Translations under genes and position numbers: made by a program | Assembly (NCBI GenBank): GCA_965214515.1 | Contig: OZ243955.1 | Coordinates: 2,657,773 to 2,721,772, forward strand | DNA: 64,000 bases | Direction of reading: 5' to 3' | Source of the DNA: Aggregatilineales bacterium | Lineage (GTDB): Bacteria > Chloroflexota > Anaerolineae > Aggregatilineales > Phototrophicaceae | Notes under the pieces: generated by a model | Database searches by the model: none | The model's input: only the letters and a program-made list of their open reading frames with translations | Told to the model about the DNA's origin: nothing | Shown: piece after piece, positions 16,398 to 55,267 of the stretch | Position numbering within the stretch: position 1 is the stretch's first letter | Layout of the letters: each line of letters opens with the position of its first letter

Positions 16398-18212
16398 ATG
16401 TCAGCCGCCTTGCTCTGGCGGCGAGCAGATGGAGTCAAAAACGGCATGTCCGAAGCGGAAACCCCTACATTCAACGCGGTGAATGAACTGCGGCAGCTTG
16501 AGGGCCTCCTTGAGCAGGTATCGGCGGCGCTGGCGGCACAGCGAGAATTGCTGCGGCGGCATGGGCTGGCGATGCCGACGAAGATACTCGACAGCGCGAG
16601 CCGCATCCAACAGGATTTCAAGCGGCTGGAAAAGACCATCCTGGCAGACCAAACCGAGCTTCAGCAGCTGCGGGCGCTGGCGGATATGTCCGTCAGAATG
16701 ACGAACTCACTGGATATTGATACGGTGCTGCAAGAAACCATGGAGCTGGTCATCGTGCTGACCCAGGCCGAGCGGGGCTATATCATCCTCAAGAATGATG
16801 ACACGGGGGAATTGGAATTTCGGATAAGCAGCGAGAGCGGCGTTTTAGGCACAAGCGCGACTGGGGGCGCAGTCCCGCAGATTAGCATGTCGGTTGTTGC
16901 TGAGGTGATGAATACCCGTGAGCCGCTGCTGGCGGACAATGCCTATCAGGATGAGCGTCTGGCGAGCAATCAGAGCATCATCAACTTTACCCTGCGTTCG
17001 GTGCTTTGCGTGCCGCTGCAATACAAAGACGAGACCATTGGCGTTGTTTATGTCGATAATCGCCTGCTTGCGGGCCTCTTCACCGAGCGCGAAAAGACGC
17101 TGCTGCTGGCTTTTGCCAATACGGCGGCGGTAGCGATTGCCAATGCCCGCATGTACACCCGCACCGAGCAGATTCTGGTGGAAATCACCCGCGTGAAAGA
17201 GTTGATGGACAACATTTTTTCATCGCTAGGCAGCGGCATCATTGCGACCGACTCCGATGATTTGGTGCGAACCTTTAACCGCGCCGCCAGCGAGATTTTG
17301 AACCTTGCCCCGGATGCTGCGGTTGGCAGCACGGTCGAGCAGGTGCTTCAGAGCGCCATTTTCCAGCTGCCTGACCAATTGGATTGGGTCAAGGAGAGGG
17401 ATATGGAGCAGACCCTGGAGCTTCATGCGGAATTGCCGGGGCGCGGGCGGGTCGCGCTGAACCTGTCTTTATCGCCCTTGAAAGACAGCAGCGATATGAC
17501 GCAGGGCTTGACTGTGGTGATGGATGATGTCACCTATTTGCATGAACACGAAACCACCATCAACGCCATGAAGCGCATCCTGCCCGAAAGCATGGTTGAC
17601 CAGATTAACGAAATCGCCAATATCGAGATGGGGGGGATGCGCCGCGAAGTGACCTGCGTCTTTGGGGATGTGCGCCCGCTGACGACGCTGGCGGCGGTCA
17701 CACCCAGCGAAAAGCTGAAAATTATCAACCAGTATCAGGCGATTGCGACTGACTGCATCCATGAATGCGGCGGGATTATCGATAAATATATGGGCAATGA
17801 GGTGATGGCGCTCTTCAATACGCAGCTTAATCCGCAACAGAACCATGCACAGCAGGCGCTGGAATGCAGCCTGTTGATGCGTGACCGCTTTATCGAACTG
17901 TATCGGGAGTTGGATATTGACCCCGACCCGCATTATTATATCATCGGGATGTTCACGGGCGAGGCGACCCTGGGCAATGTCGGCAGTTTCAATCGGCGTG
18001 AATTCACGGCCTTAGGGCATACCATCAACACGGCTAGGCGCGTGCAGGAAAACGCCGCGCCGGGCAGCATCACCATCGCACAGCAGACCCTAGAGCATAT
18101 CCGTAAAAATAGCAAGGGCATCATGCCTTACGAGTTCTGTGAGCGTGCGCTCATCTTTGGCAAGGGAATCTCGCAGGGTATGCGGGCATACGAGGTCTAT
18201 CGCAGTCAATGA
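16398..18212 (+). CDS. Coiled-coil / GAF / PAS / class III nucleotidyl cyclase protein (paralog 1; second metal Asp replaced)
   Basis: GAF core (AERGYIILKNDDTGELEF...VLCVPL), a PAS-like middle and a C-terminal cyclase domain. The cyclase has VFGDV (first Asp present), DKYMGNEVMALF (GD changed to GN) and GHTINTARRVQ (Asn and Arg present). Alternative start at 16446. Confidence 0.85.
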   Translation: MSAALLWRRADGVKNGMSEAETPTFNAVNELRQLEGLLEQVSAALAAQRELLRRHGLAMPTKILDSASRIQQDFKRLEKTILADQTELQQLRALADMSVRMTNSLDIDTVLQETMELVIVLTQAERGYIILKNDDTGELEFRISSESGVLGTSATGGAVPQISMSVVAEVMNTREPLLADNAYQDERLASNQSIINFTLRSVLCVPLQYKDETIGVVYVDNRLLAGLFTEREKTLLLAFANTAAVAIANARMYTRTEQILVEITRVKELMDNIFSSLGSGIIATDSDDLVRTFNRAASEILNLAPDAAVGSTVEQVLQSAIFQLPDQLDWVKERDMEQTLELHAELPGRGRVALNLSLSPLKDSSDMTQGLTVVMDDVTYLHEHETTINAMKRILPESMVDQINEIANIEMGGMRREVTCVFGDVRPLTTLAAVTPSEKLKIINQYQAIATDCIHECGGIIDKYMGNEVMALFNTQLNPQQNHAQQALECSLLMRDRFIELYRELDIDPDPHYYIIGMFTGEATLGNVGSFNRREFTALGHTINTARRVQENAAPGSITIAQQTLEHIRKNSKGIMPYEFCERALIFGKGISQGMRAYEVYRSQ

Positions 18213-19948
18213 ACCAGGAGAGCGGTTTCGTCACCATTCAGGCGCAGCTGAGGCGGCTGAAGGGGCGCACAGAAGAAGTGAAAAAGCTGCTGGAACAGCA
18301 GCAGCGGCTTCTTCGGCGGCGCGGAATCAGACTGCCTGCCAGCGCGATTGACGGCTTGTGGTCGCTGCGCGGCAGCATTGACAGGCTGTCGCTGGGGCTG
18401 GTGGATTCCCAGATGCAGCTTCAGCAGCTTCGGCGGCTGGCGGAAACCAGCGCCTTAATCAACTCGGCGCAGGAGACTGGCCAAGTTCTCAATCAGGTGA
18501 TGGAAACCGTGATTCAGCTGACACAGGCGGAACGCGGTTATATTGTGCTAAAGAACCGCGACAGCGGCGAACTGGAGTTTCGGGTTGCCCGCGGCCTGAG
18601 CGCTGAGGAGAGCGCCATCGGCGGGCGAATTGTCAGTTGGTCAATCATCAATCGGGTAGCGGAAAGCGGCGAGCCGCTGCTGACGGTCAATGCCGGCGCT
18701 GATGACAACATCAGCCACAGCGAGAGCATCGTTGGTTTCTCCTTGCTGAGCATTCTGGCAGTGCCTTTGATTGTCCGCGATGAGGTGATTGGCGTTGCTT
18801 ATTGTGACAATCGGGTGATGGCGGGCCTGTTCGGGGAGAACGAACTCGAGCTGCTCACCAGCTTTGGACAGCAGGCGGCGGTGGCGATTGAAAACGCCCG
18901 CCTGTTTGAGGACATTCGGGCGCAGCTGGCGCTGATGGAGGCGATGCAAATTCGGCTGTCCAACATCTTCGCTTCGATTGGTTCGGGTGTGATTACCATC
19001 AACGGGGATAATGATGTGATTGTGTGCAACGAAGCGGCCGAGATCATCATCGGCGGCTGTCGTTCGGTGGGACGCCCCTTGCGAGAGGCGCTGCCCCGGA
19101 TGACCGAGGGCTTCTATGATTGCATCGAAGAGGTGCGTGCCGAGCGGATGCAGCAGATGTGGCTGGAGAAATTTGTACATCGTGGCCGCCAGAATTATTG
19201 GCAGGTGGTCGCCAGCCCATTGCGCAGCGAAGACCAGGTCAATCGCGGGATTGCGCTGGTCATTGATGATTTGACCGAACGCAAGGAGCAGGAAGAGCAG
19301 CGCCGTCTGCTGGGGACCTTTGTCCTTGAGGCGCTGATAGAGAATATCGATTCCATCAGAGAAATAGATACCAGCCCGACCGAACGCACGGTTTCTGCGA
19401 TGTTTGCCGACCTGCGCGGTTTTACGACCTTCAGTGAATATCTTCAGCCGGAAGCATTGATGAAAATCGTCAATCGCTATTTGGGCGCGGCGAGCGATGC
19501 GATGACATCTTGCGGCGGCATCGTGGACAAGTATCTGGGGGATGCGGTCACTGGCTTGTGGAACACCCAACTCAACCCGCAGGAGGAACACGCGGTGCGG
19601 GCAGTGCGGGCGGCGCAGGCGATTGTCGCTGCGGTGGATGGGCTGAACCAGGCGCTTGAGCCTGAGGAGCGACTCTATTTTGGCATCGGGGTTCATACTG
19701 GTCCCGCCGTTCTGGGGATGGTGGGCGGCGCCAGCCGCATTGAATTTGCCGCGCTGGGCGAGGCGACCGATGATTGCAAATTCTTGCAGGAAAATGCGCA
19801 GCCGGGCGAGATTGTCATCAGCGCCGAGACGTATGAACGGGTGAGACATCGCTTCGAAGCTGAAGCGATGAGGCCCAAAAAGATGAAAGCCGGCTTTGAG
19901 CGTCATGCGCGGGTGTATCGGGTCGGCAAGCGCCAACACGCGCCATGA
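18209..19948 (+). CDS. Coiled-coil / GAF / PAS / class III nucleotidyl cyclase protein (paralog 2; Asn/Arg positions replaced)
   Basis: Same architecture as the upstream gene, with an ATGA start/stop overlap. The cyclase motifs are MFADLRGFT and DKYLGDAV (both metal Asp present) but GEATDDCKFLQ in place of GDTVNxAxR. Confidence 0.85.
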   Translation: MNQESGFVTIQAQLRRLKGRTEEVKKLLEQQQRLLRRRGIRLPASAIDGLWSLRGSIDRLSLGLVDSQMQLQQLRRLAETSALINSAQETGQVLNQVMETVIQLTQAERGYIVLKNRDSGELEFRVARGLSAEESAIGGRIVSWSIINRVAESGEPLLTVNAGADDNISHSESIVGFSLLSILAVPLIVRDEVIGVAYCDNRVMAGLFGENELELLTSFGQQAAVAIENARLFEDIRAQLALMEAMQIRLSNIFASIGSGVITINGDNDVIVCNEAAEIIIGGCRSVGRPLREALPRMTEGFYDCIEEVRAERMQQMWLEKFVHRGRQNYWQVVASPLRSEDQVNRGIALVIDDLTERKEQEEQRRLLGTFVLEALIENIDSIREIDTSPTERTVSAMFADLRGFTTFSEYLQPEALMKIVNRYLGAASDAMTSCGGIVDKYLGDAVTGLWNTQLNPQEEHAVRAVRAAQAIVAAVDGLNQALEPEERLYFGIGVHTGPAVLGMVGGASRIEFAALGEATDDCKFLQENAQPGEIVISAETYERVRHRFEAEAMRPKKMKAGFERHARVYRVGKRQHAP

Positions 19949-40281: not shown

Positions 40282-40779
40282 CTAAGGGCTCGTCCATCTC
40301 GATTGAATGTAATCCGGGCATAATTCATAAAGTGTGAAACCCTGCTGCGCCAGCCTGTCCGCTTCTTTTGCCCAATCCGTATCTGTGGCATTATAGATAG
40401 TCGCATACGGATTGAACGTCATTGCCAAGGCGATAAATTTACGATCATCAGGGTCATCAAAAGTAATCGGCACGGGCAGGATTGCATAGCCATCTTCATC
40501 AAATTCAATTTGTCTTTCCACGAGTCGATAAAAAAGGCGCCTCGTCAGTTGATTCAATAGACTTTCAGCTATTCCTCCTTTTTTGACATTGCGCCGATAT
40601 TCCGAAATAACCTTGTAGGTTGCAAACGAGTCAACGACAAGCCTATCTTCGCTCTCGATAAATTGCTGAAGCCAATCTGCACAAGCGATGATACAATCCT
40701 GTTCCTCCTCTGTATTCACTTCGCTAATCGGCTTGTCAACCATTACCCATACATTGGTATCCACTACAATATCAGCCAC
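40282..40779 (-). CDS. PIN-domain nuclease-like protein
   Basis: Four acidic PIN positions sit in the canonical contexts: VVD7TNVW, VISE60Y, DPD111D112RKFIALA and ATD133TD135W. The start is a GTG with GGAG 7 nt upstream, lying inside the 3' end of the ATPase gene (8-nt GTGGCTGA overlap). Confidence 0.7.
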   Translation of the reverse strand: MADIVVDTNVWVMVDKPISEVNTEEEQDCIIACADWLQQFIESEDRLVVDSFATYKVISEYRRNVKKGGIAESLLNQLTRRLFYRLVERQIEFDEDGYAILPVPITFDDPDDRKFIALAMTFNPYATIYNATDTDWAKEADRLAQQGFTLYELCPDYIQSRWTSP

Positions 40780-42157
40780 TCACTAACTCCTGATGGCGGC
40801 GGCCAAGTGCGGCTTTGAGCATCTTATGCAAATCGCCGCTGATATCTCCCAGGAAGTTATCGGGCCAATTGGCGATTTGCCCATACTTGTCCACTTCAAC
40901 CTCACAAAGCGTCGAACCCGCTTTCCCTGGCGCACAGAAATACAGCTTGATATTTTCGGGACGGGCGAATTCTGGTTTTGGCTCGGCAATTCGGCGCTGC
41001 AAGCGCCGCAGCAGATGTTCGCTATGGCTCTCAACAATCAGTTGCAATTCCCGCTTTTCGGCAGCATCTATCATCAAATCTGCCAGTGCGCTCTGGGCCT
41101 TGGGATGCAGATGCAATTCTGGCTGTTCGAGCAGGATAGTTGAACCTGCCGGCGCCGACAGCAGCATCGCAACCATCGGCAAGACCTGCGACACGCCAAA
41201 GCCTACATCCACCAGCGCACTTTCTGTACCGCCAATTTCCACAGTGACTTCGTAGAATCGTCCTTTTTCATCGGTCGGTTTTACATGGAGGGCATCGACA
41301 AGCTCTAATCCTTTCAGCTGATTCTCTGTTTCTTTCTGTAGCGGTTTGTTATCTCGCGCGGAAGAAACCAAAGTTGCCATCGTGTCGGCGCCGTCAGGTT
41401 CAACAACTTGTGATTTCATCTCTCCTGTCCATTGATAATAGCGTTTGGGGTATTGCCTCAAGGGGCCCAAATACGAAACTTTATCCATTAAACTTTCAAA
41501 TTCGTGATTAAAGAATAGGGTTGAAAATAGAAGGCTTCTATCAAACTTAACAATCTCATCAGGCAAAATATAACAGCTTTTGGGGAAACCAACCGTTACA
41601 GGTTCTTCGGCAACATCTTCAAAACCTAGTCGCAGTTGTTTAGCATCAAAGGGCTCAGGCAATTCAACAGTATATCTATCGCCCTTATAATGTTTGACTT
41701 TGACGGCGTATGGCTTATGACCTGTCAAATTAGCGACATAATCCAACACTTCAATGGCAATGTCACTATTTAAGTGCCAAGAGATATTATAATTTATTGA
41801 ATGAACCTCGCGGTCTCGTATATTGTAAGACATCCCGTCGCTATCGATTCTTTGTTCAAGAACACGAAAGGCTGATGAAGGATCCCAAACGAGGCTCAAT
41901 CCAATGCGCTTGCCGGTATCATGCCCATAAACCAGGTCTTCATAACTGCCAAAATCGACATAATCCCGCGGGCCGCCGCCAAAATTGATATGCTGTTTGG
42001 GGTCAAAGCTGTTGGCGGTCTGCTTGAGCAGCAGCAATGCCTGCAAGAGGGCCGTTTTGCCCGAACTGTTGACACCAAACAAGAACGTAATCGGCGCCAG
42101 GTCCATATCGAGCTTCTGCCAACCCTTGAAATTTTCCAACCCTATTTTGCGGAGCAT
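40772..42157 (-). CDS. ABC/SMC-like AAA_15/AAA_21-type ATPase with a DUF3696-like C-terminal tail
   Basis: Walker A GVNSSGKTALLQAL, Q-loop-like YLGPLRQYPKRYY, Walker B/D-loop TILLEQPELHLHP and H-loop IVESHSEHLL. The C-terminal tail is IKLYFC...VDKYGQIANWPDNFLGD. AGGAG lies 8 nt upstream of the ATG. Markedly AT-rich: lines 41461-41580 are 30-35% G+C. Confidence 0.75.
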   Translation of the reverse strand: MLRKIGLENFKGWQKLDMDLAPITFLFGVNSSGKTALLQALLLLKQTANSFDPKQHINFGGGPRDYVDFGSYEDLVYGHDTGKRIGLSLVWDPSSAFRVLEQRIDSDGMSYNIRDREVHSINYNISWHLNSDIAIEVLDYVANLTGHKPYAVKVKHYKGDRYTVELPEPFDAKQLRLGFEDVAEEPVTVGFPKSCYILPDEIVKFDRSLLFSTLFFNHEFESLMDKVSYLGPLRQYPKRYYQWTGEMKSQVVEPDGADTMATLVSSARDNKPLQKETENQLKGLELVDALHVKPTDEKGRFYEVTVEIGGTESALVDVGFGVSQVLPMVAMLLSAPAGSTILLEQPELHLHPKAQSALADLMIDAAEKRELQLIVESHSEHLLRRLQRRIAEPKPEFARPENIKLYFCAPGKAGSTLCEVEVDKYGQIANWPDNFLGDISGDLHKMLKAALGRRHQELVSG

Positions 42158-42183
42158 GATGGCTTCTCCTCTCGTCTGCCTTT

Positions 42184-42189
42184 AGTATA
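42184..42189 (-). promoter_or_regulatory. Putative -10 box (TATACT, minus strand) for the ATPase-PIN cassette
   Basis: Minus-strand TATACT lies ~27 nt upstream of the ATG at 42157, and the SD falls within the predicted short leader. The -35 element is weak. Confidence 0.3.
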
Positions 42190-42221
42190 GCAATAGTTTA
42201 AGCGGGCTTGCTGCTTGCGGC

Positions 42222-50479: not shown

Positions 50480-52651
50480 ATGCCAAGACGACACTATCAA
50501 ATTGGCAATATGGACTGCGCTGGCTGCGCCCGCGAAGTTCAGACGGCTATTGAAAAGCTGGAGGGCGTTGATTTCGCTCATGTTGATTTTGTGAGCCATA
50601 GCCTGCAACTTGGCGGTCATGTCGAATACGAGACGCTCAAAGCCCAGGTGGAATCGCTGGGCAAGACCCTGCTGCCTGTCGAACCAGGCCGCAGCCAAAA
50701 CGGGGCGAAACCCGCGCGGGCAGGCCTGCCTGGCTTCTGGGATTATCTGTGGGGGCGAAGTTCAAGCCGCGTGGGGATTTATGGCGGCTTGCTGCTGCTG
50801 GTGGCGCTGCTGCTGGATGGGCTGCGGCTGGCGCCGACGGGCCTTGTCAGCGTGATTTATACGCTGTCGCTGGCGCTGGCGATTAAGCCGATTGCCGTCA
50901 ATGGCCTCAATACGCTGCGCATCAACCGCGAATTCAACATCAATATGCTGATGACCATCGCAGCTGTGGGTGCGCTGATACTGGGCGAATATCTGGAAGC
51001 GGCGATGGTGATTTTTCTGTTTTCCATTGGCGAGGCGCTGGAAGGATATACGGCTGACCGGGCGCGGGACAGCCTGCGGAGCCTGGTCGCGCTCAAGCCT
51101 TTGACCGCCAATCGCATCAGCGGTCATCAAACCGAGGTGGTTGCGGTCGAAGAGCTGCGGATCGATGACCGAATTCGGGTGCTGCCTGGCGAAAAAATCC
51201 CGATGGATGGGGAGGTGCTGGCTGGTCACAGCCAAGTCAATCAGGCGACTGTCACGGGTGAGAGCCTGCCAGCAGCCAAATCAGCGGGGGATGAGGTCTT
51301 TGCCGGATCCATCAATGGCGAGGGGGCGCTCGATATTCGCGTCAGCCGACTTTCGCAGGACAACACCCTCAGCCGAATTATCGACCTGCTGCAAAATGCC
51401 CAGTCCCTTCGCGCCCCCAGCCAGCGCCTCGTTGACCGATTCGCGCAGTTCTATACACCGACGGTCGCGCTGGCGGCCTTGGCGGTCGCCTTGATTCCGC
51501 CGCTGGTCTTGGGTCAGCCTTTTCAGGACACAGCCGCGGGGCCGGGCTGGCTGTATCGCGCCCTTTCGATGCTGGTGATTGCCTGCCCTTGCGCGCTGGT
51601 CATCAGCACGCCGGTCACCGTGATTAGCGCGGTTGCGGCGGCGGCGCGGCAGGGTGTGCTGATAAAAGGCGGCGCCCATCTGGAGACACTGGCACAGGTT
51701 AAAACAGCTGCCTTTGATAAAACTGGCACGCTCACCGCCGGCAAGCTCACCGTCACCGCCACGCATACCAACCATTGCGCCCAAAGCCAGCCTTGTAAGC
51801 CATGCGATGAACTGCTGTCGCTGGCCGCTGCGGTTGAAGCGCAGAGTACGCATCCCTTTGCCGCGGCGATACTGGCATCGGCGCAGGCGCGTGACTTTGA
51901 CTGCGCGGCCGCCAGCCAAGTCGAAACGCTGGCGGGGCAGGGCATACGCGGTACGGTGGATGGCAGGCGGGTGACGGTTGGCAGCCACAGCTACTTTGAG
52001 CATAAATTCGCGCACAGTTCGCATCTCTGTGAGGCTGCCCGGCAAATCGAAGCCCAGGGTCAAAGCGCGGTGATGGTGCATGATGGCGATGCGGTGCGCG
52101 GTGTCATCGCCCTTGCCGATGCGCCGCGTGCCGAAAGCAGGCGCGTCCTCTCCGAATTGCGTCAGATGGGGATTCAATCGGTCATGCTGACGGGTGACAA
52201 TGGGACTGTTGCCCGCGTGATTGGCGAACAGGTGGGGGTGGACAGCGTTCTGGCTGAGCTTCTGCCACAGGACAAGGTCAGCGCTATCGAAAATCTGCCC
52301 GCGCAGGTTCAGCCTGTCGCCATGATTGGCGATGGCATCAACGATACACCCGCCTTGGCGGCGGCATCGGTGGGGATTGCGATGGGGGGCGCTGGCAGCG
52401 CCCAGGCGATGGAAACTGCCGACATCGTTTTGATGGCGAATCATCTCAAGCAGCTGCCCGCCACCATTCGCCTGGCACGTTTTGCCCGTCGCCTGATTCA
52501 GCAGAATATCCTGCTGTCGCTCGGCTTGAAAGCGGTCTTCCTGCTGCTCGCCTTGACGGGCAGCGTGACGATGCTGGCGGCTGTCTTCGCTGATATGGGC
52601 ATGTCGCTGGTGGTGACCCTCAACGGGATGCGAGCGCTGAAAAAACGCTAG
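50480..52651 (+). CDS. zntA: Heavy-metal translocating P1B-type ATPase, Zn/Cd/Pb (P1B-2)-like
   Basis: HMA domain GNMDCAGCAREV, TM6 CPCALVISTP, DKTGTLT and GDGINDTPAL. The TM7 Lys (SLGLKAVF) and TM8 ADMG (DxG) match ZntA/CadA rather than Cu pumps. Confidence 0.88.
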   Translation: MPRRHYQIGNMDCAGCAREVQTAIEKLEGVDFAHVDFVSHSLQLGGHVEYETLKAQVESLGKTLLPVEPGRSQNGAKPARAGLPGFWDYLWGRSSSRVGIYGGLLLLVALLLDGLRLAPTGLVSVIYTLSLALAIKPIAVNGLNTLRINREFNINMLMTIAAVGALILGEYLEAAMVIFLFSIGEALEGYTADRARDSLRSLVALKPLTANRISGHQTEVVAVEELRIDDRIRVLPGEKIPMDGEVLAGHSQVNQATVTGESLPAAKSAGDEVFAGSINGEGALDIRVSRLSQDNTLSRIIDLLQNAQSLRAPSQRLVDRFAQFYTPTVALAALAVALIPPLVLGQPFQDTAAGPGWLYRALSMLVIACPCALVISTPVTVISAVAAAARQGVLIKGGAHLETLAQVKTAAFDKTGTLTAGKLTVTATHTNHCAQSQPCKPCDELLSLAAAVEAQSTHPFAAAILASAQARDFDCAAASQVETLAGQGIRGTVDGRRVTVGSHSYFEHKFAHSSHLCEAARQIEAQGQSAVMVHDGDAVRGVIALADAPRAESRRVLSELRQMGIQSVMLTGDNGTVARVIGEQVGVDSVLAELLPQDKVSAIENLPAQVQPVAMIGDGINDTPALAAASVGIAMGGAGSAQAMETADIVLMANHLKQLPATIRLARFARRLIQQNILLSLGLKAVFLLLALTGSVTMLAAVFADMGMSLVVTLNGMRALKKR

Positions 52652-54009
52652 CTGCCAAAGTCCCGCTGGACAACCTGATTAAAGAATCTCCTGGCGAAAT
52701 CTTCGGCTTTGCCTTCCTGTATGCCGCTTATTGTTAAGGCGACAAAAGCCTGTCTTTCCATATCAAAGCCAATCTGAAAAATGTCGGGCTTGTTCGATTG
52801 TGTGATGTCCCCAAGAGGGACATAGCTGTAATCAATATCTTTGGCAATGATGAGGATGACCCGCGCTCGCTGTCTTAATCTGTAATCCGAGTAACCAAAA
52901 AAGAGGAGGTATCTGGCGCGGCGATTGTCCCGCTTGAAATCAATGCCGAAAAACCAGGTTCGCTTGGCCGACCCGCCATCACGCAGGCTAAGATATTTTT
53001 CAAATCTGAGCGTGCCAAAATCCTTGAAATTCAAATAGGCGCTGCCAACAGTGATTGCCTGATTGAAATCGTCAACAGTTTGTTTGAAGTAACTCTTGAG
53101 AAGCTCCATGGCACGCAGCCAGACCTCATATTCATTTCGTGCTTGGCTTATAGCAGGCGCTTCAAAACGCGCGGTCATTGAGGCCAGCCATTCCTGCTCT
53201 TCTCGCTGTTCTTTAGCCGCTTTTTCCCATTCCTCCAGGCTTTCTTCCACATTTTCGTAGATTAGCTCGATGAGTGGCGTTAAGTCTCCCGCCTGTGATT
53301 CTTCGAGCGCATCATAATAGCGCAGTCGGTCATCCCGCGTGATAATGCAGATAGGATAACCCCGTCTCATCAAAATCAGGTTCATTAAAATTCGAGCGGT
53401 GCGTCCATTGCCATCAATGAAGGGGTGGATTTGCGCCAGCCAGGCATGTGCCGCGGCGGCGCATAAGACAGGCAGGTCGGATTCGGGGTGGGCGGGTGAT
53501 GTGACTGCCTGAATATAAGCGCCCAAGCTGTCCATCTGCGGGCTTATCGAGTGGGCTTGGGGCGGTTTGTAATCAGAACCGGAAATCGCCACCTCACTGT
53601 GGCGGTACTTGCCGGCATATTCGTCTTGTATATCTTTCAGAATGAGGGCGTGAATCTGGCGCAAGTCATTCAGGGTAATCGGCTTTTGTGTTGAAACGGC
53701 CATTTCTTCCATGAAGTCCAGCGCATGGGACAGGTTTTTTGCCTCTGCCTGGTCTCTTAATGTTTTTCCCGTCAGGGTCATGCCCATTTCGACAACCATG
53801 CGGGTTTCGCCAATGGTGAGCGCGTTGCCCTCAATCGCGTTGGAATGATAAATGCCCTTGATTCTGAAGTATCGTCGAATTCGCTTTAACACCTGCGGAT
53901 TGAGCTTGCCGACCTGGCGCATTTCCCGAACGCGACCATGCAAATCCAGCAGTCGCTTCTCAACATTTGCATGATACATAAACGCTGTGCCAGCGAGGTC
54001 TTTGGGCAT
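52648..54009 (-). CDS. Fic family protein (class II, N-terminal inhibitory motif) with an uncharacterised ~200-aa C-terminal domain
   Basis: Fic motif HPFIDGNGRTARILMN and inhibitory (S/T)xxxE(G/N) motif HSNAIEGN. Start set at the ATG at 54009 (MPKDLAGT), because the longer track ORF overlaps the upstream DegT gene. Lower G+C (sampled lines 42-43%). Confidence 0.8.
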   Translation of the reverse strand: MPKDLAGTAFMYHANVEKRLLDLHGRVREMRQVGKLNPQVLKRIRRYFRIKGIYHSNAIEGNALTIGETRMVVEMGMTLTGKTLRDQAEAKNLSHALDFMEEMAVSTQKPITLNDLRQIHALILKDIQDEYAGKYRHSEVAISGSDYKPPQAHSISPQMDSLGAYIQAVTSPAHPESDLPVLCAAAAHAWLAQIHPFIDGNGRTARILMNLILMRRGYPICIITRDDRLRYYDALEESQAGDLTPLIELIYENVEESLEEWEKAAKEQREEQEWLASMTARFEAPAISQARNEYEVWLRAMELLKSYFKQTVDDFNQAITVGSAYLNFKDFGTLRFEKYLSLRDGGSAKRTWFFGIDFKRDNRRARYLLFFGYSDYRLRQRARVILIIAKDIDYSYVPLGDITQSNKPDIFQIGFDMERQAFVALTISGIQEGKAEDFARRFFNQVVQRDFGS

Positions 54010-54040
54010 ATCCGTTTGTATCCCGCGGCTCGACTGTTTG

Positions 54041-55267
54041 TCAAAGCAATTCCTGGGCGTGTTCGTGTATTTTCCGAATGGCGGCCGTAATCTCGTGCAT
54101 GTCTTGCTCATCGCCCAGCAGGGCATTCTGTGTAATCCAGACGCTCTCCTCGGCTTGTCGGATGGCGTTGGGGAAGGGATGATGCAGAAAGTCATGCGCC
54201 TGCGCTGCCTGTTCGCCACTGAGCCGCTGCCGGTAGCTGCCATTGGTAAAGACATCCAGTTGATGCAGTGGCGGATACGGCGCCTGCAAGGGAATGCCCT
54301 CGGCTTCCAGCGCGGCTGTGAATCGCTGTCTGGAGATGCCCGAAAAGGCGCGACTGTCGAAATGAAAGATATAAGCGTAATGCCCGTTGCGCGTCACCCG
54401 CTCATCGTGGACTTGCGGGCTGATGCCGGGTATGCTGCCCAGCAAGCTATCCAGCAGACGTCCATTTTGATGACGGCGGGCCGTCTGTTCTTCGAGGCGG
54501 GTTAATTGGGCGCCTAAAACAGCGCCTTGCCATTCGCTCAAACGGTAATTCGAGCCATAGACAAAATGACTGTAAAACCATTCGCCCGGCATCCGACCGC
54601 AGTCATGGGTGGACCGCGCGAGACGTTCAAACTCGTCGTCGTTGGTGACAATCATCCCGCCTTCGCCGGCGGTCATCGTTTTGCTTGCCTGGAAGCTGAA
54701 GGTGCCGCCTTTGCCGAAGGTGCCGATTTTGCGTCCGCGCCATTCGCTGCCATGCGCATGAGCGCTGTCTTCCAGCAGCGCGATTCCATGTTTGGCAGCC
54801 ACCGCCGTCAGCTGATCCAGGTCAGCCGGCAGTCCGCCCATGTGTACTGCAATCATCGCTTTGGTTTTCTCCGTGATGGCCGCCTCGACAAGTTCAGGGT
54901 CAATGCAATAGGTATCGGCTCTGACATCGACCAGCACCGGCAAGGCGCCGGCAAACAGAACCGCGCTGGCGGTCGCCACGAAGGTTGCGTCTGGCACAAT
55001 GACCTCATCGCCCGGCCCCACTCCCAAGGCAGCCAGCGCCACCTCAATGGCGTGAGTGCCGTTGGTGATGGCAATGCCATGTTTTGCCTGATGGAAGGCT
55101 GCGAATTTACCCTCAAATTCGAGGGTCTTGGTTCCTGGCGTGCGCCACCAAACCCGGCTCTCCAGCACTTCATTGAGCGCTTCTCGTTCCAAGTCGTCAT
55201 AGATGGGCCAAAGGGGGAATGGCTTGGTCTTGCTGGGTGGCGCGCCATGGATGGCAAGTTTGGGCAT
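54041..55267 (-). CDS. DegT/DnrJ/EryC1/StrS family PLP-dependent sugar aminotransferase
   Basis: 408 aa with the PLP-Lys context TFSFQASKTMTAGEGG and an N-terminal fold typical of the family. Confidence 0.88.
   Translation of the reverse strand: MPKLAIHGAPPSKTKPFPLWPIYDDLEREALNEVLESRVWWRTPGTKTLEFEGKFAAFHQAKHGIAITNGTHAIEVALAALGVGPGDEVIVPDATFVATASAVLFAGALPVLVDVRADTYCIDPELVEAAITEKTKAMIAVHMGGLPADLDQLTAVAAKHGIALLEDSAHAHGSEWRGRKIGTFGKGGTFSFQASKTMTAGEGGMIVTNDDEFERLARSTHDCGRMPGEWFYSHFVYGSNYRLSEWQGAVLGAQLTRLEEQTARRHQNGRLLDSLLGSIPGISPQVHDERVTRNGHYAYIFHFDSRAFSGISRQRFTAALEAEGIPLQAPYPPLHQLDVFTNGSYRQRLSGEQAAQAHDFLHHPFPNAIRQAEESVWITQNALLGDEQDMHEITAAIRKIHEHAQELL

Follow-up and report, generated by a model that had tools for sequence, protein, structure and literature searches.

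In the genome of an Aggregatilineales bacterium (Chloroflexota, Phototrophicaceae), two overlapping genes that encode an ABC-type ATPase and a small PIN-like protein are lodged between genes of a housekeeping type, and they raise the question of whether such a pair is an anti-phage defence system, whether it is one that already has a name, and how it came to occupy its site. The genes lie in a stretch of 64,000 nucleotides (nt) of contig OZ243955.1 (assembly GCA_965214515.1, positions 2,657,773 to 2,721,772), which is referred to here as the window and whose own numbering is used unless another locus is named. The explanation favoured as a whole, with a probability of about three in four, is that the pair (the cassette) is a divergent chromosomal Chloroflexota copy of the HEC-03 anti-phage system. 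The pairing of such an ATPase with a PIN protein is already catalogued and has been tested in Escherichia coli, and the cassette is not a new defence system. What is new is the persistence of a HEC-03 copy at one site, together with the swapping of sequence blocks between close relatives; this locus-fixed, block-swapping evolution and a link to the Menshen system are the modest value that the locus adds.

Identity of the gene pair

HEC-03 was described as an ABC ATPase with a VapC-like PIN protein that is found embedded in Hma (helicase-methylase-ATPase) systems (Payne et al., 10.1101/2024.01.29.577857). The name stands for Hma-embedded candidate 03, and the embedding is the context of discovery, not a requirement of the models. 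The copy that was tested is that of Pseudomonas cichorii ATCC 10857 (WP_025259138.1 and WP_025259137.1). Introduced into E. coli, it lowered phage plaquing, with both genes being needed; induction of HEC-03 with isopropyl β-D-thiogalactopyranoside was toxic in E. coli, and the P. cichorii PIN homologue was superposed structurally on VapC (PDB 6A7V) (10.1101/2024.01.29.577857).

Both proteins of the window are matched by the HEC-03 models of PADLOC-DB v2. Model PDLC04148 matches the ATPase with E = 1.7e-106 and 355 bits (protein residues 1-456, profile positions 1-454 of 458), and PDLC04147 matches the small protein with E = 1.6e-16 (residues 4-157, positions 3-154 of 159), this being the sole PADLOC match of the small protein at E <= 1. 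An earlier note on this DNA, made from the sequence without database searches, had tentatively taken the pairing to be an unnamed one and had itself accepted that a PADLOC match to a named system would remove the novelty; since both proteins match HEC-03 models over their full length, and the system has been tested experimentally, the novelty is refuted on the note's own terms. Tools without the PADLOC candidate models would miss the pair, because the small protein has no NCBIfam model and no Pfam match above threshold, and its database records read 'hypothetical protein'. The lettering of the HEC-03 components is reversed between sources: in PADLOC, A is the PIN model (159 positions) and B the ATPase (458), and in the preprint A is the ATPase and B the PIN protein.

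The window copy and the tested P. cichorii copy are organised alike: in each, a gene for a DUF3696-tailed ABC ATPase comes first and overlaps a gene for a stand-alone PIN protein of about 160 amino acids (aa). The P. cichorii genes, at 322707-324092 and 324079-324552, overlap by 14 nt, with the ATPase first. The motifs NSSGK, YLGPLR, DVGFGVSQVLP, EQPExHLHP and ESHSEHLLRRLQRRIAE are common to the two ATPases, which are 37% identical over the 399 residues available, and the two PIN proteins are 25% identical (E = 3e-14). The copies differ in host (Chloroflexota here, Gammaproteobacteria for the tested copy), in setting, the window copy lying outside any Hma system and being fixed amid housekeeping-type genes, and at one acidic residue, where D7 of the window PIN protein corresponds to E in the P. 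cichorii protein.

The ATPase and the PIN-like protein

The ATPase is matched by Pfam AAA_15 (2.3e-25, 90.4 bits; cut-off 32.1), AAA_21 (2.8e-23, 83.9 bits; cut-off 27) and, in its C-terminal part, DUF3696 (2e-9, 38 bits; cut-off 22), and the architecture that had been read from the letters alone thus holds, with every match above its cut-off. No Toprim domain was found in the protein by the Pfam scan. With the AlphaFold2 (AF2) model of the ATPase, whose predicted local distance difference test score (pLDDT) is 70.5, Foldseek retrieves SMC heads, Rad50, the PtuA proteins of Septu and of a retron, OLD and GajA at about 1e-10. By sequence, the nearest solved structures are OLD nuclease and PtuA, the similarity being limited to the Walker A and the Walker B/H-loop regions. 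In this alignment LLEQPE of the window ATPase stands opposite IIEEPE of OLD, LIDEVD of Septu PtuA and LIDQIE of retron PtuA, so that E344 and Q345 occupy the canonical D-E positions, with a Gln at the place of the catalytic Glu; both residues are invariant in 20 homologues. Given this Gln, the ATPase may act as a nucleotide-dependent switch rather than as a fast hydrolase. Across the family, aa 76-225 are hypervariable, with a mean pairwise identity of 0.11-0.41 compared with mostly 0.55-0.92 in the conserved core, and the most AT-rich portion of the cassette falls within this region. The protein, which has a large variable insert after Walker A, belongs to the ABC/OLD clade of ATPases and resembles NsnB of Menshen in type.

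The small protein gives an AF2 model of high confidence (pLDDT 95.4) with the beta-alpha order of PIN domains. Its acidic tetrad is found at the canonical PIN positions, that is after beta1, in alpha3, at the helix start after beta3, and after beta4. All of 48 homologues have D7, D112 and D133, and conservation of at least 90% is seen at E60 and D135. Pfam PIN_3 matches 25 of these 48 family members at E <= 0.1 (best 1.9e-4), and no NCBIfam model, VapC included, matches any of them. In the Foldseek viral library the model has no significant match, the best being a DUF1308 protein at E = 2e-3. The small protein is probably a nuclease of the PIN fold that stands alone and keeps its D-E-D-D metal site intact; the assignment is held to be probable because the tetrad is near-invariant, the predicted topology is that of PIN domains, and PIN_3 matches, weak as they are, recur in the family. 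The family comprises 1250 clusters at 50% identity (E <= 1e-10). One 479-aa protein (P0272) carries a PIN domain of the HEC-03 type at residues 319-478, and may be a fusion or a mis-called gene.

Relationship to Menshen and other systems

The earlier note had likened the pair in its logic to PARIS and Septu, but outside HEC-03 the closest named relative of the ATPase is NsnB of Menshen, the best named non-HEC PADLOC match (4.5e-55, full length). Scores for AriA (2.7e-29), GajA (2e-12) and PtuA (1.5e-10) are far below that for HEC-03. NsnB, itself an ABC ATPase, ends in a DUF3696 tail and combines a non-canonical Walker B with an Arg at the Q-loop position and a GxG signature (PMC12065111), and each of these traits recurs in the window ATPase. 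In AlphaFold 3 models of Menshen, the PIN-like domain at the N-terminus of NsnC, which is catalytically dead, has two NsnB DUF3696 tails around it (PMC12065111); NsnC thus begins with a PIN-fold domain, as does the partner protein here. The two systems differ in other respects. The window pair has no NsnA (ParB-DUF262) sensor: no DUF262 or ParB domain is encoded in the genes flanking it, and no Nsn model is among the PADLOC matches of the other open reading frames (ORFs) of the window (E <= 1e-8). The PIN protein is a single domain of 165 aa that lacks the C-terminal nuclease/toxin domain of NsnC, it is not matched by the NsnC models in PADLOC even at E <= 1, and its D-E-D-D site is intact, whereas the PIN-like domains of NsnC are catalytically dead. 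The Walker B residues are E-Q in the window ATPase and E-N in NsnB. HEC-03 resembles a pared-down Menshen relative whose PIN domain is presumptively active.

The combination of an ABC/OLD-clade ATPase with a nuclease effector is shared with Septu (PtuAB), the retron I-A PtuAB pair, PARIS (AriAB), Gabija (GajAB) and OLD, and in the Walker B of retron I-A PtuA (LIDQ) a Gln likewise takes the place of the catalytic Glu. In contrast to the HNH effector of Septu (PtuB) and the Toprim domains of AriB, GajA and OLD, the effector here is of the PIN type, and similarity to these systems is restricted to Walker A and Walker B/H-loop. The cognate effectors of PARIS, Septu and Gabija are missing, the partner protein matching HEC-03A alone; neither a helicase nor an HNH gene is adjacent, and the pair is thereby also without GajB, the helicase partner of Gabija. 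What VapBC modules have in common with the cassette is a small protein of the PIN fold and its D-E-D-D acidic residues, and overexpression of P. cichorii HEC-03 is toxic; the upstream partner of the window PIN gene is, however, a 461-aa ABC ATPase whose gene overlaps the PIN start, and not a small DNA-binding VapB.

Locus history and allele swapping

The cassette is bordered on one side by genes for LytR_cpsA_psr (LytR-CpsA-Psr, LCP), DinB_2, GatC and CN_hydrolase proteins, and on the other by genes for an FHA protein, a sulfatase, a beta-lactamase-fold protein and Ldh_2; the FHA-sulfatase and LCP flanks that had been proposed were borne out by domain annotation. The same order, running from CN_hydrolase, GatC, DinB and LCP through the ATPase-PIN pair to FHA, sulfatase, beta-lactamase and Ldh_2, is found in 12/12 related loci examined, down to 55% ATPase identity, with the sulfatase gene missing in one of them, L093. 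These loci are on Phototrophicaceae chromosomes that are metagenome-assembled genomes (MAGs; L001-L003), in assemblies (L087-L094) and on a partial contig (L004). A site shared over such a divergence argues that the cassette settled at one chromosomal position long ago and was not inserted recently. No empty junction of LCP and FHA genes was seen among the related loci retrieved, in a search made via FHA homologues that turned up just 4. A recent mobile insertion had been considered as well and was ruled out: no direct or inverted repeats flank the cassette ends, and the phage genomes searched contain no match to the ATPase-PIN pair.

In composition the cassette stands apart from its surroundings. 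Its G+C content of 0.469 is the minimum among segments of the same length in the 64 kb (mean 0.565, standard deviation 0.026, z = -3.8), G+C at third codon positions (GC3) is 0.44 and 0.50 in its two genes as against 0.64-0.72 in neighbouring genes, and its G+C is below that of the rest of the locus in 7/7 loci measured. The horizontal acquisition suggested by the earlier note is thus upheld in part, by the foreign-looking composition and by the horizontal exchange of blocks described below, but the presence of the cassette at the same site in all 12 related loci does not agree with it.

Over 13 kb the contig behind L091 agrees with the window at about 98% identity, and the proteins encoded in the flanks at 95-99%; two sharp blocks are excepted. 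In block 1, which covers the ATPase insert, nt identity to L091 falls to 59-89%, and in block 2, which spans the ATPase tail and the N-terminal half of the PIN protein, to 63-85%, on a background of about 98%. Measured over the whole of block 1, identity to the window is 73% in L091 and L094 and 99.7% in L092; L091 and L094, from genomes about 98% identical to the window, carry an alternative allele that differs in the two blocks only, and L092 carries that of the window. At the protein level L091 is 80% identical to the window in the ATPase tail, 52% in the PIN N-half and 92% in the PIN C-half. The N-half of the window PIN protein is 82-84% identical to those of L001 and L002, which belong to other species, as against 52% to the near-conspecific L091, and the C-half behaves in the opposite way (64% to L001/L002, 92% to L091). 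As the phylogeny of the blocks is incongruent with that of the flanks, the pattern indicates that both blocks were replaced by recombination. A defence module can thus be diversified by recombination and still keep its place among core genes over a range that extends to 55% ATPase identity, and this persistence at a fixed site contrasts with the rapid gains and losses usually pictured for defence islands.

Distribution and decay of the family

A metagenome scan with an alignment of the ATPase recovered 80 loci, at 34-57% ATPase identity, of which 74 have readable DNA downstream. A same-strand match to the PIN model follows the ATPase gene in 73 of these 74, as would be expected of the conserved two-gene module of sensor ATPase and nuclease effector that had been predicted; the remaining locus, L005, retains a 58-aa PIN remnant (2172-2345) from which aa about 21-128 have been deleted. 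When the two nearest genes on each side were inspected in 20 long loci, HmaB was found in 4 and HmaC in 3, along with HEC-06, HEC-07, methyltransferases and Cas3c, and in many other loci the ATPase-PIN pair has housekeeping neighbours. The pair also occurs on mobilizable plasmids in Azotobacter chroococcum and on plasmids in Acinetobacter soli, of which the one examined is mobilizable too, and one of these plasmid copies lies in a helicase, methylase, HNH and DUF262 context.

Loss of the PIN gene is seen at several further loci. In L089 (7379-7858) and L090 (3733-4212) an in-frame TAG interrupts the PIN reading frame at codon 31 (ECI*NCADW) and no gene is called, while the upstream ATPase is intact. 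In L009 (7646-7843) and L071 (2609-2848) the PIN gene is truncated and the C-terminal part alone is left. Decay of the PIN gene beside an apparently intact ATPase is what would be expected if the PIN protein were a toxic effector. In one other locus, L047 (93-1190), it is the ATPase that is shortened, being without aa about 95-224, which correspond to the hypervariable insert.

Proposed mechanism and alternative explanations

A mechanism for the pair can be put forward in four steps. ATPase oligomers would hold the PIN protein via their C-terminal DUF3696 tails and so keep it inactive; the variable insert of the ATPase would detect either something made by the phage or a change that the phage brings about; the binding of nucleotide, or the pairing of the ATPase heads as a dimer, would then free or activate the PIN nuclease; and the nuclease would cut RNA (DNA being less likely), halting infection at a probable cost to the cell. 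The swap blocks fit this picture of a docking tail and a sensing insert without proving it. The elements can be drawn together in a compound reading, which taken whole is tentative and well short of an even chance. HEC-03 would here be a locus-fixed, polymorphic immune pair whose swap blocks, exchanged by recombination between strains and species, mark the determinants of specificity, with the insert as sensor and the tail and PIN N-half as a co-adapted docking interface; it would represent a minimal counterpart of the NsnB-NsnC core of Menshen with a catalytically active PIN, this domain serving both as docking module and as effector, and a conserved long-range stem in the ATPase mRNA may in addition limit expression of the toxic pair. 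Natural allele swaps and the link to NsnB and DUF3696 thereby provide guesses that can be put to the test: the insert as phage sensor, and the tail with the PIN N-half as the holder of the nuclease.

A number of observations weigh against the HEC-03 reading or against the mechanism attached to it. The protective phenotype belongs to the P. cichorii copy in E. coli, to which the window copy is just 37% (ATPase) and 25% (PIN) identical. The match of the small protein to Pfam PIN_3 (E = 0.0098, 17 bits) is under the 27-bit cut-off; a Foldseek search of PDB gave it nothing significant, the best match being a PIN-like HARP RNase P (HARP/PRORP) at E = 0.017, with PIN-like nucleases (HARP/PRORP, Rrp44, FEN, XRN, 3ix7) recurring in the top 50, each non-significant; and a profile search of PDB sequences gave no relevant match. 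The PIN nuclease predicted by the earlier note accordingly stands as the most probable assignment, on its conserved tetrad and PIN topology, but falls short of both the Pfam cut-off and structural significance. The contact of tail and PIN domain is taken over from predicted models of Menshen and not from a solved structure, and the proposal is inferential as regards substrate, trigger, stoichiometry and what ATP does. Once core divergence is removed, the ATPase tail and the PIN N-half are coupled with a partial r of 0.30, the highest between-protein value (others 0.04-0.15); these segments are neighbours on the DNA, where shared recombination tracts would mimic such a signal, and the value is therefore not counted as physical contact. 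No defence genes adjoin the cassette, its direct neighbours being of housekeeping type, and defence genes seldom keep one site over deep divergence, a pattern that a domesticated role in the cell would explain as well.

Under that last view the pair would be a domesticated or toxin-antitoxin-like module, an ATPase-regulated PIN RNase serving RNA turnover, stress response or growth control and perhaps co-transcribed with the LCP or FHA-sulfatase genes. It would account for the constant position between the same core genes in all 12 related loci down to 55% ATPase identity, for the co-directional run of genes from LCP to the beta-lactamase-fold gene, in which intergenic gaps measure 64 and 31 nt and terminator-like sites are lacking, and for the lack of adjacent defence genes. 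A role of this kind is nonetheless improbable, for the family occurs elsewhere in Hma systems, beside defence genes and on plasmids, a tested homologue protects against phage, and an arms race accounts better than a housekeeping role for the swapping of alleles in two blocks and for the hypervariability of the insert. The PIN gene is, moreover, dispensable, being a pseudogene in L089/L090 and L005, and the cassette has a conserved extended -10-like element of its own.

The full-length match to NsnB at 4.5e-55, the DUF3696 tail, GxG signature and Q-loop Arg held in common, and the predicted docking of the PIN-like start of NsnC on DUF3696 might also suggest a reduced remnant of Menshen (NsnABC), in which an NsnB-like ATPase and an NsnC-like PIN protein survived the loss of the NsnA sensor and the C-terminal toxin domain. 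This is very unlikely: there is no NsnA gene next to the pair and no Nsn match among the other window ORFs, the small protein is matched by no NsnC model at E <= 1, the catalytic tetrad missing from the NsnC PIN-like domains is intact and conserved, and the two-gene form is kept in 73/74 loci, with the P. cichorii pair active alone in E. coli. The view that the window copy no longer functions, being what is left of an old acquisition and intact in looks only, is as unlikely. Decayed PIN genes in several relatives and a G+C and GC3 still atypical for the host would agree with it, but both ORFs are of full length with all catalytic and nucleotide-binding motifs intact, the overlap for coupled translation and the upstream promoter-like element are conserved, and the core regions are clearly constrained across 55-100% identity. 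A divergent HEC-03 defence pair, long resident at its site, accommodates these observations best.

Organisation and expression signals of the cassette

The features of the cassette are listed in Table 1. The account of the genes given by the earlier note was accurate with respect to the two co-directional minus-strand genes, their 8-nt overlap with the Shine-Dalgarno sequence inside the first gene, every peptide motif quoted, and the G+C values of 35%, 30% and 70% (0.35, 0.30 and 0.70). Judging from the overlap, the ATPase and PIN genes are translated as a coupled pair; ORF coordinates give an 8-nt overlap in L001, L091, L092 and L094 as well.

Table 1. Features of the HEC-03-like cassette. 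Positions are those of the window or, where marked aa, residues of the encoded protein.
Feature	Position	Strand	Remarks
ATPase ORF (HEC-03 ABC-type ATPase)	40772-42157	-	ATG start, 461 aa; AAA_15/AAA_21 core, C-terminal DUF3696 helix
Walker A, GVNSSGKT	ATPase aa 28-35		
Q-loop position with Arg, YLGPLRQYP	ATPase aa 229-237		
GxG signature-like, GFGVSQ	ATPase aa 319-324		
LLEQPELHLHP	ATPase aa 342-352		Walker B LLEQPE, aa 342-347
SHSEHLL	ATPase aa 377-383		H-loop SHSEH, aa 377-381
WPDNFLGD	ATPase aa 431-438		
Small PIN-like ORF (probable HEC-03 PIN-like nuclease)	40282-40779	-	GTG start, 165 aa; D7, E60, D112, D133 tetrad plus D135
PIN motif VVDTNVW	PIN aa 5-11		
PIN motif ISEY	PIN aa 58-61		
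PIN motif DPDDRKFIALA	PIN aa 109-119		
PIN motif TDTDW	PIN aa 132-136		
Gene overlap, GTGGCTGA	40772-40779	-	8 nt, ATPase stop / PIN start
PIN Shine-Dalgarno, GGAG	40787-40790	-	within ATPase gene, 7 nt 5′ of GTG
ATPase Shine-Dalgarno, GAGGAG	42166-42171	-	8 nt 5′ of ATG
-10-like box, TATACT	42184-42189	-	upstream of ATPase gene
Upstream signals, extended -10-like TGCTATACT + Shine-Dalgarno	42166-42192	-	TG-N precedes TATACT
Swap block 1, ATPase insert	41420-41800	-	about aa 120-245, swap core aa 141-228; G+C 0.38
Swap block 2, ATPase tail + PIN N-half	40517-40910	-	ATPase aa 416-461 incl. DUF3696; PIN aa 14-88
Inverted repeat within ATPase ORF, 22 nt	41139-41160, 41383-41404	-	arms 222 nt apart, 95% complementary

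The TATACT box that had been proposed as a -10 element is present and resembles an extended -10, but it was not called by a strict sigma-70 scan for -35 and -10 boxes, which found no promoter 5′ of the ATPase gene. Such a scan is blind to extended -10 promoters because it requires a -35 box. An element TGnTA(T/G)ACT stands at a constant distance from the ATG in 6/7 orthologous loci, in which the surrounding spacer has diverged, and the conserved TGnTATACT element probably supports the cassette having its own promoter of the extended -10 type. No terminators were found at the cassette by scan; the genes from LCP through the beta-lactamase-fold gene are all co-directional, with intergenic gaps of 64 and 31 nt.

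Two variations were noted among the flanking genes. On a short contig from the same MAG as L004 (L093, DAOUKA010000103.1), the sulfatase gene is absent between the FHA and beta-lactamase-fold genes, and the cassette is kept, as are its other neighbours. The FHA protein of the window and of close relatives has one FHA domain and a length of 120-134 aa; in the more distant relatives L087/L088 (8023-8748) and L089 (7955-8650) it has two such domains and 231-241 aa.

Inverted repeat and other genes of the window

The inverted repeat in the ATPase gene, whose arms encode VEPDGADT and LSAPAGST, is by estimate far beyond chance for a region of 2.9 kb. In most loci with at least 45% ATPase identity, 15-18 of its 22 Watson-Crick pairs are kept, and complementarity is lost in distant loci. 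Some of the changes in the stem are two-sided, for example G-C to A-U at one pair in 4/11 sequences. In the pair counts for the stem, 76.9% are paired and 7 pairs show double changes, a number reached by 12/500 shuffles; the covariation score is 0.197 compared with 0.141 (1/500 shuffles), and the stem is present in the minimum-free-energy fold (z = -2.6). These covariation counts are suggestive only, and the repeat may form an expression-limiting structure in the mRNA or may reflect codon conservation.

A defence island at the window locus was considered and rejected, as most of the PADLOC matches of other ORFs that were checked proved to be to generic domains (cyclase-PycC, subtilase), the exception being a Fic-domain protein. 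This protein of 535 aa, encoded at 52648-54255 on the minus strand about 10.5 kb from the cassette, matches SoFic (7.8e-38) and several PDC-S04 models in PADLOC and is a possible single-gene defence candidate. Two other window ORFs match the PADLOC model 'mad3' (1.3e-33). On the plus strand, two adjacent, overlapping genes at 16398-18212 and 18209-19948 encode proteins of about 600 aa with C-terminal matches to PycC (1.4e-16 and 1.2e-24), which are probably ordinary nucleotide-cyclase signalling proteins.

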